Part shown: piece after piece, positions 5,582 through 56,377 of the stretch
Numbering within the stretch: position 1 is the stretch's first letter
Layout of the letters: each line of letters starts with the position of its first letter
DNA from: Thermomicrobiales bacterium
Lineage (GTDB): Bacteria > Chloroflexota > Chloroflexia > Thermomicrobiales > UBA6265
Assembly (NCBI GenBank): GCA_050696075.1
Contig: JBOGUF010000149.1
Coordinates: forward strand, 10,507-74,506
Length of the DNA: 64,000 bases
Direction of reading: 5' to 3'
Translations under genes and position numbers: made by a program
The notes under the pieces: generated by a model
Database searches by the model: none
What the model was told of the DNA's origin: nothing
Seen by the model: only the letters and a program-made list of their open reading frames with translations

Positions 5582-5719
5582 CTAGCTGCTAGCTGCTAGC
5601 AACGAGTCGATCATCGAGACACAGATGCTGACCGCTTTGCCTACCCTTACGCTTGAAGTGCTCATGTGGTTCCCCGGTTCCGTGTGGCTAGCAGCTCGTG
5701 GCTAGCAGCTAGCGGCTAA
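5582..5719. repeat. inverted tandem-heptamer arrays (TAGCTGC units) flanking an ~85-bp spacer
   Basis: Left arm ctagctgctagctgctagc (5582-5600). Right arm ggctagcagctcgtggctagcagctagcggctaa (5686-5719). At least 12 bp are perfectly complementary. The right arm contains the TAG stop of 5716..7236. Confidence 0.8.
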
Positions 5720-7236
5720 TCCCAGGCCAGTTCCGAGCGGCCGCGGGCCCAGAGCCAGAGGCCGAGCCAGGCGATTGTGAGGGCGGCGAGGGCGCCCAGC
5801 ATCATGACGATGCGCCGCTGCCGGCTGTCGAGGTCGGCGAGCAGCGAGCGGGCCTGCGCGGTCATCTCCTCATCGCCGAGGCTGGCGTAGGTCGTGCCGG
5901 CTTGCAGGGCAGCGGCGCGGGCCTCCGGGTAGTCGCCCCAGCGGTGAGAGCGGGCGATCGCCTCGTCAAGCCGCGCGCCAGCGGCGACGCCGTCCGCGGC
6001 GAGGGTTTCGTAGGTGGTAATCAACTCGGTGGGGCGTTGGTCGACCGGCAGCTTCTCGTACTGGGAGACGGCCTGGATGAGGAGTGACGCGGCGCGATCG
6101 TAGGTATGGTGATCGAGCGCCTGTTGCACCTGGGTCATGAGTTGCTCGGCCTGGAGGCCGGTGTCGCATTGGGTCAGGAGGTCTTCGACTTCGGTCAGGC
6201 GTTCAGCGTCGCCGAGTTCGGAGAAGAGCTGCTGCGAGCCTTCAAGCGCCTGCTTGGCGGCGGCGTAGTTGCCCCGCGTCAGCAGGTTGCGCGCCGGTTC
6301 GAGGTCGAATCCGGCGACCAAATTGTCTTTCCACTCGCCGGCGACCCAGCGGGGAATGCTCTCCCGCCACTGCTTCTCAATATCCTCTGCTTCGCGGCCG
6401 TAGGTCTGCTCCAGCGCCTCGCGCCAGTCGGGTGCGGTGCGCAGGGTCGTCAGGAAGGTCTGGAGTTGCGGCAGGCGATACCGCGAGATCAGGAACGCGA
6501 CGACCGCGTAGGACTGACCGGCGATCAGGTTGTCGTCGTCGATGACCGGTGTCGGCCGGTTGAGATCGGACCAGGAGAGGAGGGGGCCGCTTTGGTTGGC
6601 TCCTTGGACGTCGGCGGCGTAGCGTGCGAGGCGCGCATTGACCGGCCGCTCCATATAGAGCGCGATCCCCTCGTCGAAGCCGCGGGGAATGGCGAAGTTG
6701 GAGGCGATGCCGGTCAGGATGTGGGAGACGGCGTGGCGCAGGGCGTTCTCCGCCTCGAGCGGCGTGCGGGCGCCGAAGCGGGAGTAGGCGATCGAGATCT
6801 CGTTCGCCGGCGGGTCGGCGACGGCCTCGACCCCTGGCATCTCGAACCGACCGGTCGCGGCGACGGCGGCGTCGAAGGCGGCCGTGTCGGCGTAGACGTA
6901 GACGGCGATCTTGTCGGCCGGCTGGACGGCAAAGACGACGCTCAACTCGGAGAGGGCGCGCTCGGCCGGATCCTGGTAGGTCCCGACGAAGGCGTCAGCG
7001 GTGAGGTGCTCGTTGGGTTGGACGTAAAAACGGAAGTGCTCGGTTTCGACCAGTGGCCAGTCGGACGGTTGGCCAGCCTCACCGGCTGGACCTGCCTGGT
7101 CAACCTGGCCAGCCAGCGGCGCGGCGGCGGCCGGCATAGTCGGCGCGAAGGTGAGCAGGACCAAGCCGAGCGTGGTGAGGAGCAGGGCACGCCGAAGGAT
7201 GGGGGGGGAGGGGGAGCGGTAAGAAGCGTAACCCAT
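5716..7236 (-). CDS. secreted/membrane-anchored protein with degenerate peptidase-MA-like domain and TPR-like C-terminal region
   Basis: 506-aa ORF with a signal-like N-terminus and a C-terminal TM helix. RHAVSHIL...GFDEGIALYME resembles the peptidase_MA_2 HExxH...EGxA pattern, but the Glu is replaced (HAVSH). Confidence 0.6.
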   Translation of the reverse strand: MGYASYRSPSPPILRRALLLTTLGLVLLTFAPTMPAAAAPLAGQVDQAGPAGEAGQPSDWPLVETEHFRFYVQPNEHLTADAFVGTYQDPAERALSELSVVFAVQPADKIAVYVYADTAAFDAAVAATGRFEMPGVEAVADPPANEISIAYSRFGARTPLEAENALRHAVSHILTGIASNFAIPRGFDEGIALYMERPVNARLARYAADVQGANQSGPLLSWSDLNRPTPVIDDDNLIAGQSYAVVAFLISRYRLPQLQTFLTTLRTAPDWREALEQTYGREAEDIEKQWRESIPRWVAGEWKDNLVAGFDLEPARNLLTRGNYAAAKQALEGSQQLFSELGDAERLTEVEDLLTQCDTGLQAEQLMTQVQQALDHHTYDRAASLLIQAVSQYEKLPVDQRPTELITTYETLAADGVAAGARLDEAIARSHRWGDYPEARAAALQAGTTYASLGDEEMTAQARSLLADLDSRQRRIVMMLGALAALTIAWLGLWLWARGRSELAWD

Positions 7237-50113: not shown

Positions 50114-50501
50114 GCCGTTCGAATGGCGGCATCTCCTTGACCTTGCTCTGGAACTCGCACAGCACGCAGATGACGAGACTCGACTGCGAACGGCGGTCAG
50201 TCGCGCCTATGACGCCGCTTATTGCAGCGCGGCAGAATATGTGCTGGCGAATACGCCGAACCTGAAACGCACAGACCTCACACATGACGCTGTTTGGCAT
50301 GTGTTCCGGACTCCAAGCAACCGCGATCGCTGGACGATCTTCGACGACGGGATGAATCTCAAGCATCACCGTATCGACGCGGACTATTGGCGACCGATGC
50401 AGGCCCGTCGACCGGCATCGATTATGCGCGACGCGCTTTATCGATCCGCGCGGATCTTGAGATTGCTCGAAAGGCTGGAACCTGAGTCATCAGACCGGTA
50501 G
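50106..50501 (+). CDS. HEPN domain-like protein (putative toxin)
   Basis: 131 aa. SRAYDAAYCSAAEYVLAN..THDAVWHVF and NLKHHRIDADY resemble the HEPN (PF05168-type) helices and R..ADY motif. Its 3-prime end overlaps the convergent asd stop by 12 nt. Confidence 0.6.
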   Translation: MSEPFEWRHLLDLALELAQHADDETRLRTAVSRAYDAAYCSAAEYVLANTPNLKRTDLTHDAVWHVFRTPSNRDRWTIFDDGMNLKHHRIDADYWRPMQARRPASIMRDALYRSARILRLLERLEPESSDR

Positions 50502-51551
50502 CAGCCCCTCGACCCTGAAGAGTTCGGCGTTGAGGATGGAGGCGCCGGCGGCGCCGCGGATGGTGTTGTGGCCGAGGAGGACGTACTTGACGCCGAGGAT
50601 GGGGCAGGGGCGGACGCGGCCGACGACGGAGGCCATGCCGCGCTCCGCCTCACGGTCGAGGATCGGTTGGGGGCGGTTGCGCTCCTGACGGACGATGACC
50701 GGGCGCGCGGGGGCGCTGGGGAGACCGAGTTCCTGCGGCTTGCCGCGGAAGTTCTCGAAGGCCGCCACGACCTCCTCGGGCGAGGCGGGCTGCTTGAAAC
50801 GAACCGAGACCGCTTCGGTGTGGCCGTCGCGGACCGGGACGCGGTTGCAGGAGGCGCTGACGGTCACCGGGAGGAAGCTGAAGCCGCCGTCGGGTCCGGG
50901 GTAGGCGCCAAGCAGTTTTTGGGTCTCCTCGGCCATTTTCTCTTCTTCGCTGCTGATGAAGGGGACGACGTTGTCGATCATGTCGAGCGAGGGGACGCCG
51001 GGGTAGCCGGCGCCGGAGACGGCCTGCATCGTGGTGACCATCACCGCGTCGAGGCCGAAGGCGTCCTGGAGCGGTTTGAGGGTGAGGACCATGTGGATGG
51101 CGGAACAGTTCGGGTTGGTGGCGATGAAGCCGGACCAGCCGCGGTTGCGCTTTTGCAGCTCGATCGCCTGGACGTGGTCAGGGTTGACTTCGGGGATCAA
51201 GAGGGGGACGTCCGGCTCCATGCGGTGGGTCGAGGTGTTACTGAGGACGGCGTGCCCGTCTTTGGCCAGGCGCTGCTCGATTTCGCCGGCGACCTCGCCG
51301 GGGAGGGCGGAGAAGGCGATCGGGCTGTCGATCTGGTCGGCGTAGTCCTTGATGACCAAGTCGGCGGCGTCCGAGGGCATGAAAGCATCGAGCCGCCAGT
51401 CGGTCGCCTCGCGGTACGTCTTGCCGATCGAGCGTTCGGAAGCGACGAGTTCGGCCACCCGGAACCAAGGGTGGTTGTCAAGGAGTTGGACGAAACGCTG
51501 TCCAACGCTGCCTGTGGCGCCGAGCACGGCTACGGGAATGCGGTCTGCCAT
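50490..51551 (-). CDS. asd: aspartate-semialdehyde dehydrogenase
   Basis: 353 aa. VAVLGATGSVGQRF NAD(P) motif, active-site region NPNCSAI, and C-terminal LLGHNTIRGAAG. Confidence 0.93.
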   Translation of the reverse strand: MADRIPVAVLGATGSVGQRFVQLLDNHPWFRVAELVASERSIGKTYREATDWRLDAFMPSDAADLVIKDYADQIDSPIAFSALPGEVAGEIEQRLAKDGHAVLSNTSTHRMEPDVPLLIPEVNPDHVQAIELQKRNRGWSGFIATNPNCSAIHMVLTLKPLQDAFGLDAVMVTTMQAVSGAGYPGVPSLDMIDNVVPFISSEEEKMAEETQKLLGAYPGPDGGFSFLPVTVSASCNRVPVRDGHTEAVSVRFKQPASPEEVVAAFENFRGKPQELGLPSAPARPVIVRQERNRPQPILDREAERGMASVVGRVRPCPILGVKYVLLGHNTIRGAAGASILNAELFRVEGLLPV

Positions 51552-51574: not shown

Positions 51575-51604
51575 GGGTCAGGGGTCGGGAGTCAGGAGTC
51601 AGGG
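51575..51604. repeat. tandem heptamer array (GRGTCRG x4), left arm of the four-helix-bundle cassette
   Basis: gggtcaggggtcgggagtcaggagtcaggga. It contains the TGA stop (tca at 51599-51601) of the four-helix-bundle gene. Confidence 0.85.
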
Positions 51605-51973
51605 ACGACGTTCGAGCTTACGCTCAAGAGCGTTTCTTAGAGAAGCGAGTTGTTTGCCTAAGGGCACGACGATTTCCTTCACTTCCTCGAATTGTGCGGC
51701 CTTCAGATACCCAAATCGGACCGCTAATTCACATTGCGTTTCAACCTCCGCCAATGAACTACGAGCAATAGAGATGGCTTGCAAATACTCCTTCGTCGAT
51801 TCCCTGGTGTGTCCCTCCGCGACGTTGGATGGAATTGAAACGGCAGCTCGGCGCAGTTGATTTGCCAGACCATACAGTTCGTGACGAGGAAATGCTTCGG
51901 TTTGCTTGTGGATCATTTCCGCGAGGTCCATCCCTAGTTTCCACACCCGAAGATCCCGAAAGCTCTCAATCAC
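51599..51973 (-). CDS. four helix bundle protein (TIGR02436 / 23S rRNA intervening-sequence protein family)
   Basis: GTG start at 51973 after GAGAGGAG. FRDLRVWKLGMDLAEMIHKQTEAFPRHELYGLANQLRRAAVSIPSNVAEG is the family signature. The upstream part of the track ORF is a shadow. Confidence 0.85.
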   Translation of the reverse strand: MIESFRDLRVWKLGMDLAEMIHKQTEAFPRHELYGLANQLRRAAVSIPSNVAEGHTRESTKEYLQAISIARSSLAEVETQCELAVRFGYLKAAQFEEVKEIVVPLGKQLASLRNALERKLERRP

Positions 51974-51997
51974 CTTCGCTCCTCTCGTCGCCTTTGC

Positions 51998-52026
51998 CCC
52001 TGACTCCTGACTCCTGACCCCTGTCA
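51998..52026. repeat. tandem heptamer array (CCTGACY x4), right arm, inverse of 51575-51604
   Basis: cctgactcctgactcctgacccctgtca. Its reverse complement matches the left arm with 1-2 mismatches over ~24 bp. It contains the TGA stop of aspartate kinase (52024-52026). Confidence 0.85.
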
Positions 52027-53475
52027 CCCAACTCGTAATGATTCGGCCAGCATGTCGGAGCGGCGGGGGCGGCGGCCACGGGCGCTGGCGGTTTGGGGGC
52101 GGATGAAGGCGGTGTGGATCGCTACGACGGCGCGGTCGGCGGCGCGGGCCGGGACGGCGGCGACGAGGGCCGCGTTCGACATCTGCTGACTCGCGGCCAG
52201 GACGGGAACGCCGGCGCGGTGGAGGACGCCGAGCATGCGGGCCAGGGCAGCGGGTTTTTCGGCCGCGCCCTGGCCGATCGCGGCGACGACGGCGACCTCC
52301 TCGGTGCAACCGACTTCGGCCTCGAAGTCGCGGGCGCCAAGGACTTCCTCGATCCGGCACTGGGTGCGGCCACAGCCGCCGCCGGTGGCGGCGTCGACCA
52401 GGTAGGTCATGCGGCGGCGGGAGGAGGCTTGGGCGGCGAGCACGACTTCGATCCGGTCTTCGTGCAGCGCGCCGAAGACGGCCGAGGCGGCGCCGGAGAG
52501 GTCTTCCAGCTCCGGGACGTCGACGGTCAGAAGCAGCAGACCGTGCATAGCGGTGACCGCCTTGACTTGGTCGCCGGCCGCCTCGCGAGTGACGAGCGTG
52601 CCCGGCTCGGTGGGGGCGACGGTGGAAAGGATGCGGACCGGAATGCCGCGGGCGACGGCGGGACGGATGGTGCGGGGGTGGAGGACCTTGGCGCCGAAGT
52701 GGGCCAGCTCTTGGGCCTCGTCGAAGCTGACGCTCGGCACGACGCGGGCGTCGGGCACCTTGCGGGGGTCGGCGGAGAGGACGCCGGGCACGTCGGTCCA
52801 GATATGGATCTCGTCGGCGTCGAGGGCCGCGCCGAGCAGCGTTGCGCTGTAGTCGGAACCTCCGCGGCCGAGGGTGGTCGTCGTCCCGTCCGGGGCGAAG
52901 CCGATGAAGCCGGTCATGACGACGGTGAGCCCCTGGTCGAGGAGGGGGCGGACGACGGCGTTCGCCTGCTCGCGGGTGCGGACACGGTCGGGGCGAGCCG
53001 CGCCGAAGCGGTCGTCAGTGGCGATGACGCGGTCGGCGAAGAGGTGGACGGCCGGCGTGCCGCGCGATCTGAGCGTGGCGGCCATGAGGACGCTGAGTGC
53101 CTTTTCACCGGTGGCGCCGATGCGGTCCGAGTCGCGGTGGGAAAGGTCGCCGGCTTCGGCGACGTCGTTGAGGGCGTCGTCAAGCGTGGCGTGGAGTTGG
53201 TCGAGCTCGACGAGGGCGGCGAGGCGCTCCGCTTCGTCCTCGATGCCGTCTGCAATGCCGAGGTGCTTTTCGCGGATAGTGGCGGCGATGGCAGCGGCCT
53301 GGTCGCGCTCGCCGGTCGCGGCGGCGCGGGCAGCGTCGAGAAGCAGGTTAGTGACGCCGCTGGCGGCGGAGACAACCGCGGCGCGGGGTTGGGGTTGGGC
53401 CTCGGTAATCGCGGCGGCATCCCGGACGCGGTCGCGATTGCCGACCGAGGTGCCGCCGAATTTGAGGACGATCAT
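52024..53475 (-). CDS. ask: aspartate kinase
   Basis: 483 aa. N-terminal MIVLKFGGTSVG, a kinase core, and C-terminal ACT-like regions. Confidence 0.92.
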   Translation of the reverse strand: MIVLKFGGTSVGNRDRVRDAAAITEAQPQPRAAVVSAASGVTNLLLDAARAAATGERDQAAAIAATIREKHLGIADGIEDEAERLAALVELDQLHATLDDALNDVAEAGDLSHRDSDRIGATGEKALSVLMAATLRSRGTPAVHLFADRVIATDDRFGAARPDRVRTREQANAVVRPLLDQGLTVVMTGFIGFAPDGTTTTLGRGGSDYSATLLGAALDADEIHIWTDVPGVLSADPRKVPDARVVPSVSFDEAQELAHFGAKVLHPRTIRPAVARGIPVRILSTVAPTEPGTLVTREAAGDQVKAVTAMHGLLLLTVDVPELEDLSGAASAVFGALHEDRIEVVLAAQASSRRRMTYLVDAATGGGCGRTQCRIEEVLGARDFEAEVGCTEEVAVVAAIGQGAAEKPAALARMLGVLHRAGVPVLAASQQMSNAALVAAVPARAADRAVVAIHTAFIRPQTASARGRRPRRSDMLAESLRVG

Positions 53476-53480
53476 GACGT

Positions 53481-53589
53481 AGCTCCTAGCCGCTAGCTGC
53501 TGGCCTCTAGCTTCTTGCGTGCCATCTCCACGTCGCTGTGGACACCCGCTAACTCAAGGCTAGGAGCTAACGGCTAATGGCTAGTTGCT
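53481..53589. repeat. imperfect inverted heptamer arrays (AGCNNCT-type) between attenuator and ask start
   Basis: Left arm agctcctagccgctagctgctggcctctagcttcttg. Right arm caaggctaggagctaacggctaatggctagttgct. 53480-53491 and 53558-53569 are 12 bp perfectly complementary and include the ask Shine-Dalgarno sequence. Confidence 0.75.
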
Positions 53590-53590
53590 G

Positions 53591-53623
53591 ACAAAACAAG
53601 AGCGGGAGCGTTGCCGCTCCCGC
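53591..53623 (-). terminator. intrinsic terminator (attenuator) downstream of the leader peptide
   Basis: On the minus strand: GCGGGAGCG-GCAA-CGCTCCCGC followed by TCTTGTTTTGT. Confidence 0.75.
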
Positions 53624-53659
53624 CTGCCGGTTCGTTTGGATGTTCGCCGGGCCTTCGCC

Positions 53660-53776
53660 CTACTCGCTACGCACCCTCCGACCGACAGGCATGGGCTTGG
53701 TAATCATGATGCCGGTGATGGCAATCATGGTCTCAGTAGTGGTGCCGGTCGTGATAGCGCGCACAATCTCACTCAT
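53660..53776 (-). CDS. putative Thr/Ile/Met-rich leader peptide of the ask-asd operon
   Basis: Manual translation gives [38 protein letters not shown]. That is 8 Thr, 6 Ile and 3 internal Met in 38 codons. It lies upstream of the terminator and ask. Confidence 0.65.
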
Positions 53777-53923
53777 GGCAGCACTATAAACGGTGAAGCG
53801 TTGGAACGCAAGAGGTTACGGCCCCCGGCCGGTCGATTGCTTGGCGATGCATTTTCGGCATGGAATGTGCTGCTAGCGTCGGGGTATCTGGAACCATGGA
53901 CCGATAACAAGGGAGGGAAGGTG

Positions 53924-55141
53924 ATGGTCGCTGTCTGCTCGCGCGCGCGAGATCGGTTGGCCGCGATACTGGGCGCCGTCGTCGTGCTCGCCGTGGTGGT
54001 CGCGTCGTCGGGCGTCGCCGTGGCGGGTGCGCAGACCGCGTCGCCGCCGGCTGGGGCGACGCCGGCCGGTGCGCCGGGCATCGTGAAGGAGCCGTACGGA
54101 ACCGTGGATGGCGAGGCAGTCGATCGGTACACCTTGACCAACGCCGCCGGCATGGAGGTCGTGATTTTGACCTACGGCGGCATCATGCAATCGATTACCG
54201 TGCCCGACCGCGACGGGACTTTGGCGAATGTCGCGCTCGGGTTCGACAACCTGGACGACTACGTCAACCGTAACCCGTACTTCGGCTGCATCACCGGCCG
54301 CTACGCGAACCGGATCGCCAATGGATCCTTTACCCTCGAGGGCGAGACGTACCAATTGGCGATCAACAACGACCCGAACACGCTCCATGGCGGCGAGAAG
54401 GGGTTTGACAAGTACGTTTGGGCGGCGGAAGAGGTGAGCGGCGCGGACGGCATGGGCATCCGGCTCAGCCGCGTCAGCCCGGACGGCGAGGAGGGCTACC
54501 CCGGCACGCTGACGGTCGAGGTGACGTACACCCTGACGGAGAACAACGAACTGCGGATCGACTATCGCGCCACGACCGACGCCGCGACGGTGGTCAACCT
54601 GACCAACCACTCGTACTTCAACCTGGCCGGGGAGGGCGCGGGGAGCATCTTCGACCACGAACTGCAGATCTTCGCGGCCAACTACACGCCGGTCGACGGG
54701 ACGTTAATTCCGACCGGGGCGATCGCCCCGGTCGCGGGGACGCCGTTCGACTTCACGCGGTCGACGGCGATCGGCGCCCGTATCCGCGACGGGAGCAACG
54801 AGCAGATCGTGATCGGACGGGGATACGACCATAACTTCGTGCTCGACCGCGCCAGCTCAGACGATGTCTCGCTGATCGCGGCGGCGCGGGTACATGACCC
54901 GGCGAGTGGGCGGGTGATGGAGGTTTCGACAACCGAGCCGGGCATCCAGTTCTACACCGGCAACTTCCTCGACGCGACGCTGGTCGGCCCGAACGGCGCG
55001 ATCTACCGCCAGGGCGACGGCTTCGCCCTTGAAACGCAGCACTACCCGGACTCCCCGAACCAACCGGATTTCCCCTCGACCGTGCTGCAGCCGGGCGAGG
55101 AGTACACCTCGACGACGGTGTACGCGTTTTCGACGGAGTAG
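53924..55141 (+). CDS. galM: aldose 1-epimerase (galactose mutarotase), secreted/anchored form
   Basis: ATG at 53924 after GGGAGGGAAGG, followed by a signal/TM segment. Motifs [38 protein letters not shown] and HSYFNL. Confidence 0.88.
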
Positions 55142-55273: not shown

Positions 55274-56377
55274 GTGGCATCACGATCATCCCCAAGCACG
55301 TCGGCTAAGCAGGCGAAACAGACTCTGAACGGCAATGCGGTGGCGGATGCCCGCGCGGCAGGGCCGCGGTACGTTACCGACGCCAAGCCGGGCATCCGGC
55401 GGCAGCGGTCGGGACGCGGTTTCCGCTACCTGGATGCAAACGACAAGCCGGTGCGCGACCAGGCGACACTGGCGCGGATCAAGGCGCTGGCGATCCCGCC
55501 GGCCTGGACCGACGTCTGGATCAGCCCGTCGCCGAGCGGTCACATCCAGGCGACCGGGCGGGACAACGCCGGGCGCAAGCAGTACCGCTACCACCCCGCC
55601 TGGCGAGAGGTGCGGGACGAGGCGAAGTACGTTCGGCTCGTCGCGTTCGGCCGGGCGTTGCCGGCGATCCGGGCGCGCGTAAGCGAGGACATGGGGCGGC
55701 GCGACTTGTCGCGCGACCGGGTAGTCGCGGCGGTCGTGCGGCTGCTCGAGGAAACGCTGATTCGGGTCGGCAACGAGGAGTACGCGCAAGCGAACCGCTC
55801 GTTCGGGCTGACGACGCTGCGCGACCGGCACGTCGAGGTGAACGGCGCCACGCTGCACTTCCAATTCCGGGGCAAGGGCGGGAAGGAGCACGCGATCGAG
55901 TTGCACGACCCGCGGGTGGCCCGCGTCGTCCGGCGCTGCCGCGAGATCCCCGGCCAGGCGCTGTTTCAGTACCTCGACGAGGCGGGCGAGCGCCAGCTTG
56001 TCGACTCGGGCGACGTCAACGACTACCTGGGAGAGGTCGCGGGCGCGGAGTTCACGGCGAAGGACTTTCGGACCTGGGCGGGCACCCTCTCGGCTTGCCG
56101 CGCCTTCCTGGCGTGCGAACAGGCGACGTCGAAGACGGAGGCGGAACGGCTAGTCGTCGGCGTCGTCGACGAGGTGGCGGCGCACCTGGGCAACACCCGC
56201 GCCGTCTGCCGCCGCTGTTACATCCACCCGGCGGTGATCGACGCCTTTGTGGAGGGCAGCCTGGCCGCAGCCTTCGCGGCCGACGAGGAGGCGTCCGACG
56301 GGGAAGGACCGGAACTGACGGAGCGCGAGCGGGACCTGCTGAACTTCCTGGAAAAGGCGGCCAAGGCGAGCCGTTGA
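55274..56377 (+). CDS. DNA topoisomerase IB (bacterial poxvirus-like type)
   Basis: 367 aa. YVTDAKPGIRRQRSGRGFRYLD, LAIPPAWTDVWISP and GRKQYRYHP are typical of bacterial TopIB. C-terminal catalytic region with CRRCYIHP. Confidence 0.85.
   Translation: MASRSSPSTSAKQAKQTLNGNAVADARAAGPRYVTDAKPGIRRQRSGRGFRYLDANDKPVRDQATLARIKALAIPPAWTDVWISPSPSGHIQATGRDNAGRKQYRYHPAWREVRDEAKYVRLVAFGRALPAIRARVSEDMGRRDLSRDRVVAAVVRLLEETLIRVGNEEYAQANRSFGLTTLRDRHVEVNGATLHFQFRGKGGKEHAIELHDPRVARVVRRCREIPGQALFQYLDEAGERQLVDSGDVNDYLGEVAGAEFTAKDFRTWAGTLSACRAFLACEQATSKTEAERLVVGVVDEVAAHLGNTRAVCRRCYIHPAVIDAFVEGSLAAAFAADEEASDGEGPELTERERDLLNFLEKAAKASR

Follow-up and report, generated by a model that had tools for sequence, protein, structure and literature searches.

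What controls the common steps of the aspartate pathway in Thermomicrobiales, and which signal such a control would read, is the question raised by the DNA upstream of the aspartate kinase gene ask in a 64,000-nucleotide stretch from a Thermomicrobiales bacterium (contig JBOGUF010000149.1, positions 10,507 to 74,506; this whole stretch is referred to here as the window). A preliminary description of this DNA had noticed a small open reading frame (ORF) rich in Thr, Ile and Met codons on the minus strand, followed by a GC stem and a U-rich tract, and had read these as ribosome-mediated attenuation of an operon formed by ask and the aspartate-semialdehyde dehydrogenase gene asd. The present analysis agrees with that reading: the element is very probably a ribosome-mediated (leader-peptide) transcription attenuator of ask-asd, which encode the common steps of the pathway. 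Attenuators of this kind are already known, and this particular one is new for the Thermomicrobiales. Support comes from the conservation of the element in relatives and from alternative pairing of the leader RNA, while the response to amino acids itself is predicted from the sequence. The ORF and the two genes that it would control are located as follows.

53660..53776, minus strand: leader ORF with an ATG start, 38 codons plus TAG, read from the sequence and represented by homologous ORFs in all relatives.
52024..53475, minus strand: ask, aspartate kinase of 483 amino acids (aa), first regulated gene (Pfam AA_kinase and ACT, TIGR00657).
50490..51551, minus strand: asd, aspartate-semialdehyde dehydrogenase, second gene of the operon (semialdehyde dehydrogenase domains, asd_EA equivalog).

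Translation of 53776..53660 gives a peptide with 8 Thr, 6 Ile and 3 internal Met, and the ORF stops 184 nucleotides (nt) and starts 301 nt from the ask ATG; sequence and distances thus bear out the 38-aa ORF first described at 185-300 nt from ask. Its Thr, Ile and Met codons fall into two clusters, i.e., TTGTTT (in peptide letters) and a second cluster of 10 residues. With a Thr+Ile+Met content of 46%, the peptide ranks first among the 313 ATG-started ORFs of 20-60 aa in the window (the runner-up has 33%), and the binomial probability of finding at least 17 Thr/Ile/Met in 37 residues at a background of 9% is 4e-9. In addition, the combined promoter-plus-ATG pattern TTGNNN-N17-TANNNT-N6-7-ATG occurs once in the 64 kb, at the leader ORF, and on these three grounds a chance origin of the ORF was rejected. 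The ORF lies in a 450-nt intergenic region between ask and an aldose 1-epimerase gene (53927..55141, plus strand); because this upstream neighbor is divergent, the intergenic region is regarded as the ask promoter region. Nine peptides that had been gene-called in metagenomes (P0121-P0129) match the leader ORF, and were found by a search with an alignment led by a 62-aa extended ORF.

Relatives of the locus came from exact-protein look-ups, which gave six further lineages with DNA, and from a metagenome scan with an N-terminal Ask alignment, which gave 80 more loci; Ask homologues at 70-90% identity number in the thousands, and a protein identical to the Ask of the window is known from a Thermomicrobiales metagenome-assembled genome. 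The final set consists of 69 distinct upstream regions of Thermomicrobiales-type ask, 55 of them at <93% identity, and is mostly derived from the metagenome scan. Because the search handle was always the Ask protein and never the leader, the presence of the leader is not an artefact of ascertainment. The promoter, the Thr/Ile/Met-rich ORF, a stop codon between two complementary segments and a terminator occur in the same order upstream of ask in 69/69 distinct regions, and the six lineages from the exact-protein look-ups have the same layout as the window. Only in the four most distant loci (Ask identity <=39%) is the arrangement absent. Conservation of the peptide upstream of ask, which the preliminary description had proposed as a check, was therefore found in every distinct Thermomicrobiales-type locus. 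The leader ORFs of the relatives have 32-59 codons (e.g., MNVAFVLTTTTTTGAEISIMGISIMKRCLPVVEVSESR, MNDRGRTTTGTMAMTVISTTEITTIPPAGSGVRG and MYSLAGATTTDTAMMMVTMIGKTIIIVPAGSGVRC) and stay open throughout, and in the alignment the large gap blocks within the regulatory part of the ORF are mostly multiples of three.

Codon content was counted in 55 leaders, with the long ORFs of the window as background and the adjacent ask genes as a reference for codon usage. Thr, Ile, Met and Lys are end products of the pathway begun by Ask and Asd, which also yields diaminopimelate. Thr accounts for 20%, Ile for 11% and Met for 6% of the leader residues, i.e., 4.1, 3.9 and 5.9 times the background, and together these three residues make up 53% of the leader core versus 9% of the background. 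All 55 leaders contain at least 4 Thr and at least 2 Ile, and the medians per leader are 3 for internal Met and 1 for Lys, each of which may also be 0. In two lineages (L085 and L093), part of the Ile/Met cluster is replaced by Lys codons. The leaders also differ from ask in the choice of synonymous codons, AUU representing 54% of the Ile codons in leaders versus 15% in ask, and ACU 19% of the Thr codons in leaders versus 5% in ask. The set of sensed amino acids first put forward, Thr, Ile and Met, thus holds for Thr and Ile, whose codons are universal; those for Met are common, not universal.

The leader is preceded by a promoter with the following two hexamers.

53806..53811, minus strand: -35-like hexamer TTGCGT of the leader/ask promoter, read from the sequence (TTG hexamer in 52/54 relatives).
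53783..53788, minus strand: -10 hexamer TATAGT, ending 6 nt before the leader ATG (TAnnnT box in 53/54 relatives).

Promoter counts refer to the 54 relatives with enough upstream DNA. In 52 of these, a TTG hexamer stands 16-18 nt upstream of the -10 box (17 nt in 51, 18 nt in one), and in 53 a TAnnnT box, most commonly TATAGT, ends 5-7 nt before the ATG (6 nt in 27, 7 nt in 25). A Shine-Dalgarno-like sequence before the leader ATG is absent from all 54. With the spacing usual for sigma-70 promoters, transcription probably begins at the A of the leader ATG or at an adjacent nucleotide, and since the -10 box lies 6-7 nt before the ATG and a Shine-Dalgarno sequence is missing, the leader ORF is probably translated from a leaderless mRNA. 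The preliminary description had correctly recognized the layout of leader ORF and terminator, and had overlooked both the missing Shine-Dalgarno sequence and the 6-7 nt spacing from the -10 box. The same spacing is seen in a subgroup with longer leader ORFs of 55-59 codons (L137, L138, L142, L148 and L151), in which a 20-25-codon N-terminal extension that is not enriched in Thr/Ile/Met starts 6-7 nt after a TATGAT-type box, and is followed, as elsewhere, by the regulatory cluster and by GCCUGCGGUCGUGG, the segment described below as region 2.

At its distal end, the leader carries an intrinsic terminator, which consists of a hairpin and a T-tract.

53600..53625, minus strand: terminator hairpin (regions 3:4) with loop GCAA (terminator scan, repeat/arm search, covariation).
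53591..53600, minus strand: T-tract CTTGTTTTGT (terminator scan).

The perfect 9-base-pair (bp) arms GCGGGAGCG (53623..53615) and CGCTCCCGC (53610..53602) correspond to the GC stem already noticed with its U-rich tract, and the terminator scan extended this stem to 10 pairs (53624..53601), followed by CTTGTTTTGT; the predicted energy in the window is -21.9 kcal/mol. In 68/69 distinct relatives the hairpin is followed by a T-rich tract according to the automated scan, and the remaining one (L146) has a weaker tract that was placed by hand. Covariation was assessed in alignment A5, built with MAFFT from 48 sequences: columns 181-191 pair with 200-210 in 86% of cells, and 7/11 pairs are changed on both sides, with a variable terminator loop that MAFFT aligned imperfectly. 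In 45% of the relatives the T-tract ends at most 60 nt, and down to 13 nt, before the ask ATG; because this leaves no room for a separate promoter, read-through of the terminator is the only plausible route to ask in relatives with such a short spacer. A separate ask promoter downstream of the terminator was rejected as a candidate, as the search of the window gave none and the spacer of many relatives is too short to hold one.

Upstream of the terminator, folding of the leaders revealed a competing helix (regions 2:3) and a hairpin inside the ORF (H1).

53706..53728, minus strand: hairpin H1, AUGAUUGCC...GGCAUCAU, inside the ORF at the second Ile/Met/Thr codon cluster (covariation).
53678..53691, minus strand: region 2, 5' arm of the antiterminator, UGCCUGUCGGUCGG, in the last third of the ORF (A5 columns 110-123).
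53621..53634, minus strand: region 3, 3' arm of the antiterminator, CGAACCGGCAGGCG (A5 columns 172-185).

For this comparison, leaders were folded after truncation before the terminator 3' arm, and region 2:3 pairing and H1 appeared alike in every lineage tested. As RNAalifold recovered the structure only in part from the whole MAFFT alignment (H1, the antiterminator core and a terminator fragment), consensus pairs were taken from per-sequence folds projected onto alignment columns. H1 (columns 61-69 with 75-83; -11.4 kcal/mol) is paired in 84% of cells, with 8/9 pairs changed on both sides. The antiterminator comprises 14 bp between the consensus arms UGCCUGCCGGUCCGG (region 2) and CGGAUCGGCAGGCG (region 3), with 87% of cells paired and 7/14 pairs changed on both sides. 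Taken jointly, H1 and the antiterminator are paired in 85% of cells, versus 28-41% after the partners have been shifted by 1-3 columns; 16/24 pairs are changed on both sides, and their covariation score was reached by 0/500 shuffles. The segment AGGCG (53625..53621; columns 181-185) forms part of the antiterminator 3' arm and, at the same time, of the base of the terminator 5' arm; owing to this shared segment, antiterminator and terminator exclude each other at the end of the terminator stem next to the T-tract. The mutually exclusive helices which the preliminary description had suggested looking for were thus found, with 5 nt in common and with compensatory substitutions; its account of the structure stands as to the terminator and had overlooked the third conserved hairpin, that inside the ORF. 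The antiterminator is more stable than the terminator in 48/48 sequences (medians -39 vs -20 kcal/mol; -36.9 vs -21.9 kcal/mol in the window). Such a ranking is usual for attenuators, in which it is the order of folding, not equilibrium, that decides the outcome.

Hairpin H1 bears on which amino acids would be sensed. The same attenuator might respond to Thr and Ile only, like Escherichia coli thrL, the Met and occasional Lys codons being by-products, and this version is a real contender with somewhat less than an even chance. It fits the universal minimum of at least 4 Thr and 2 Ile per leader against a minimum of zero for Met and Lys, it fits the fact that Met and Lys codons are one-step mutational neighbors of Ile/Thr codons (AUG versus AUH/ACG), and many Met codons lie inside the H1 stem, where AUCAU/AUGAU pairing is required to build the hairpin. 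However, no residue is more strongly enriched than Met (5.9-fold; median of 3 internal Met per leader), Met-rich stretches like AMMMVTM (L090) and GMMIT (L114) exceed the needs of the stem, and Met sensing would make physiological sense since ask-asd also supplies Met synthesis. The wider proposal, namely an ancestral, clade-wide leaderless attenuator that integrates Thr, Ile and Met (plus Lys in some lineages) on the ask-asd trunk, in which Met is genuinely sensed and H1 serves as a pause or synchronization signal for leaderless coupling, is regarded as rather doubtful. If Met were sensed, the element would to our knowledge be the first natural leader-peptide attenuator responsive to Met.

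In two other explanations, translation of the ORF plays no regulatory part. The frame in which region 2 is read differs between lineages (Pro-Ala/Val-Gly in most, Leu-Pro-Val in the L081 group) and its complementarity to region 3 is kept, so that the conservation of region 2 is one of RNA. This is what would be expected if the switch between terminator and antiterminator were set by a metabolite (riboswitch) or by an RNA-binding protein, with the small ORF incidental, and in Bacillus, aspartate kinase genes are reported to be under lysine riboswitches (PMC13638988). Such a switch is nevertheless improbable here: it leaves the 4- to 6-fold enrichment of pathway end-product codons, the fixed distance between ATG and -10 box, and an ORF that no relative interrupts and whose stop always lies between regions 2 and 3 unexplained, conserved unpaired positions outside the arms from which a ligand pocket could be made are few, and no Rfam family matches even at E<=10. 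Alternatively, the ORF might encode a functional small protein, or the terminated leader RNA might act in trans, the hairpin merely ending a small gene. The ORF has been gene-called in several metagenomes, and trans-acting attenuator products are known, as described for Sinorhizobium meliloti trpL (PMC7298713, PMC6614838). The changing frame of the C-terminal third argues against a functional peptide, as do its widely varying length (32-59 aa) and sequence, given that codon class and RNA pairings are kept; many relatives, moreover, lack the space for an independent ask promoter past the terminator, and a role in trans would add to attenuation in cis rather than replace it. This last explanation is considered highly improbable.

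For attenuation by a translating ribosome, a further arm is proposed that would keep region 2 from region 3 when amino acids are plentiful.

53742..53755, minus strand: region 1, first Thr-codon cluster (AUC ACG ACC GGC AC), proposed protector (anti-antiterminator) arm, complementary to region 2.

In the window, region 1 (ACGACCGGCAC, codons I-T-T-G) pairs with region 2 in both full-length and ORF-only folds, and the duplex has a predicted energy of -17.1 kcal/mol. The odd conserved Gly within the Thr run would be explained by this pairing. Compared with dinucleotide shuffles, the mean z-score of the 1:2 duplex is -0.95, and in a swap test the own region 2 was preferred in 75% of cases, versus 85% for the 2:3 pairing. 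Three-way compensation across regions 1, 2 and 3 was found in L120 (ACCAGCA/UGCUGGU/ACCAGCA) and in L094 and L119 (GAUCGG/CCGAUC/AAUCGG). With moderate support of this kind, the 1:2 helix is probable, not established. The stop codon lies between regions 2 and 3 in 48/48 aligned sequences; its median distance is 13 nt from the end of region 2 and 27 nt from the start of region 3. Roughly 10/13 Thr/Ile/Met codons per leader lie so far upstream that stalling on them would keep the ribosome off region 2. Once at the stop codon, a ribosome would stand in the loop which the antiterminator must close, and it is plausible, judging from this geometry, that it blocks the antiterminator on steric grounds.

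Taken together, the attenuator may be pictured to work as follows, with stalling as the signal, the roles of the 1:2 pairing and of H1, and the identity of the sensed amino acids as predicted parts of the scheme. Transcription would start from TTGCGT-17-TATAGT, and the ORF would be translated from the leaderless 5' end while RNA polymerase is still in the leader; H1 might, as a guess, act as a pause hairpin that synchronizes polymerase and ribosome. When charged Thr- or Ile-tRNA, and probably Met-tRNA, is scarce, the ribosome would stall in either codon cluster and keep region 1 occupied or apart from region 2, so that the free region 2 could pair with region 3 once the latter has been made. 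The antiterminator would then sequester the 5 nt at the base of the terminator 5' arm and thereby keep the terminator stem from extending to the T-tract, and polymerase would read through into ask and asd. With ample charged tRNA, the ribosome would reach the stop codon in the loop between regions 2 and 3 and hinder their pairing; after its release, or without translation, region 1 would recapture region 2, region 3 would pair with region 4, and transcription would stop at the T-tract.

Several points weigh against this scheme. The transcription start, the termination point and the amino-acid response are all ones that we infer. The covariation counts are inflated by the shared ancestry of the metagenomic fragments, and the structures tested were derived from the same sequences. 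The overlap of antiterminator and terminator amounts to only 5 nt, and an upper terminator stem of 6-7 bp could coexist with the antiterminator. The 1:2 pairing reaches p<=0.05 in just 17% of the sequences. Of region 2, just the last 2-3 nt would be covered by a ribosome at the stop codon, so that the block of the antiterminator in the replete state rests on steric arguments together with the 1:2 pairing. Met codons are missing from some leaders, and those present may be a by-product of the AUCAU/AUGAU self-complementarity in H1. Finally, a 110-nt hairpin before ask and a cassette between ask and asd, both described further below, may modify expression or processing independently of the attenuator.

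With respect to known systems, the element matches no Rfam family. At gathering thresholds, Rfam cmscan of the whole window gave 0 matches, Thr_leader (RF00506), other leaders, lysine and SAM riboswitches and T-boxes included, and a scan of 53300-54000 at E<=10 returned only chance matches to models of microRNAs and small RNAs. Membership in a riboswitch family, T-box or Thr_leader was rejected on the basis of this missing Rfam match. The element is a functional analogue of E. coli thrL outside the Rfam family Thr_leader. As in E. coli, where thrL encodes a peptide of 21 residues, an ORF for a short leader peptide rich in Thr/Ile codons precedes two hairpins, antiterminator and terminator, that are alternatives to each other, sensing would be multivalent (two or more end products of the aspartate pathway), and the leader stands upstream of a homologous aspartokinase domain: NCBIfam PRK09436 (bifunctional aspartokinase/homoserine dehydrogenase I) matches the Ask of the window at 1e-99. 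In contrast to thrL, the element of the window has no sequence or covariance-model similarity to it, lacks a Shine-Dalgarno sequence and is apparently leaderless; it is longer (32-59 codons), has two codon clusters, the second of which contains a covarying hairpin, and includes Met codons; and it belongs to Chloroflexota, not Proteobacteria, where it would control ask-asd rather than thrABC.

Leaderless attenuators are also known from Actinobacteria. In Corynebacterium glutamicum, ilvBNC is preceded by a leaderless leader-peptide attenuator with three hairpins, i.e., an anti-antiterminator, an antiterminator and a terminator, of which the 5' hairpin has been proposed to block initiation at the leaderless start (PMC11857589). 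The mycobacterial polycysteine upstream ORFs are likewise described as leaderless leader-peptide attenuators (bioRxiv 10.1101/834739). These cases share with the present element an ORF at the transcript 5' end without a Shine-Dalgarno sequence, a high-GC host and codons that match the end product of the pathway, and ilvBNC in addition shares the three-hairpin logic. They differ in that they use Ile/Leu/Val (ilvBNC) or Cys (mycobacterial upstream ORFs), belong to another phylum and show no sequence relationship; furthermore, the 5' arm in the window lies about 20 nt into the ORF, unlike in ilvBNC.

Loci from other phyla were collected by a contig scan with the full-length Ask alignment, at 26-43% identity among the matches listed, and were used only for the question of analogous leaders. 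In four Anaerolineae loci (L003, L005, L019 and L029), ask is preceded by a Thr/Met-rich ORF (e.g., MINLSGATTTTMTTTTTPVGEAAA) with a GC hairpin and a T-run behind it, and in four Bacteroidota loci (L054, L060, L061 and L074) Thr/Ile-rich ORFs (e.g., MYNNSSIITIISTTGITWRKAN) precede ask homologues. These ORFs are not alignable with the Thermomicrobiales element, none has the GCCUGCCGG/CCGGCAGGC arms, and at least L003 has a short 5' untranslated region instead of a leaderless start. The comparison suggests that the same regulatory logic may have been used repeatedly for this Ask family in several phyla. An attenuator-like leader has reportedly been noted upstream of Thermus flavus ask. No description of an ask leader peptide in Chloroflexota was found in the full-text literature, of which the coverage was incomplete and included few subscription journals.

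Domain matches confirmed the ask-(cassette)-asd gene identities given earlier. The closest solved structures to the Ask of the window are the Methanocaldococcus jannaschii aspartate kinase 3c1m (E 4e-73) and E. coli AKIII, and its Asd matches the asd_EA equivalog (TIGR00978), not the common bacterial asd_B type. In all relatives examined, asd directly follows ask without the cassette. Two further features of the operon lie outside the conserved attenuator core.

51577..52023, minus strand: cassette inserted between ask and asd (gene for an intervening-sequence (IVS) protein, coding sequence 51973..51599, plus inverted heptamer arrays).
53480..53589, minus strand: 110-nt hairpin of inverted tandem heptamers (-52.8 kcal/mol, z -3.85).

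The cassette gene encodes a 124-aa four-helix-bundle / 23S rRNA IVS protein (PF05635, TIGR02436) with a weak match to the Avd protein of diversity-generating retroelements. On either side of the gene stand inverted GTCAGGA/CCTGACT heptamer arrays of 3.6-3.9 copies, whose pairing gives a stem of about 30 bp. The cassette resembles an IVS-type element located in an mRNA rather than in an rRNA. As for the 110-nt hairpin, it fills the stretch between T-tract and ask, which the preliminary description had included in the region to be folded (53480-53800); this stretch is a heptamer-repeat hairpin rather than attenuator core. Its 3' arm carries the ask Shine-Dalgarno sequence (AGGAG), which is partly sequestered. 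A sister heptamer element is present at 5583..5720 of the window, and the motif GCTAGNNGCTA occurs 9 times in the window versus 0.08 expected. Long spacers are present in about half of the relatives, and absent from the others; several relatives (L093, L095, L105, L107 and L139) carry heptamer hairpins at the same site. These hairpins may mark an insertion hotspot, or serve as RNase III processing sites or in translational control. The units are CTAGCCG-like in the window, CAGCCGT/CAGCTAT in L093, L105 and L107, GGGGATT in L095 and CCGGACG in L139, and the 3' arms of these hairpins end at, just before, or include the ask Shine-Dalgarno sequence. Two genes from the ask leader, at 55274-56377 on the plus strand, the window also contains a gene for a bacterial type IB topoisomerase (Topoisom_I catalytic core and Top1B_N_bact).

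The attenuation concept itself is unchanged by this element. What it offers is a well-supported regulatory RNA family for Chloroflexota (Thermomicrobiales), in which cis-regulation has hardly been described. An Rfam family could be founded on the alignment, which might also help to annotate small ORFs that are now labelled hypothetical proteins, and about 50 natural variants with covariation are available for studying how a 70S ribosome loaded at a 5'-AUG is coupled to RNA polymerase. For the organisms, the finding would mean that the ask-asd trunk is under codon-sensing attenuation, in contrast to the riboswitches and repressors of model organisms, and, together with the actinobacterial cases, it would extend leaderless leader-peptide attenuation to a second high-GC phylum.

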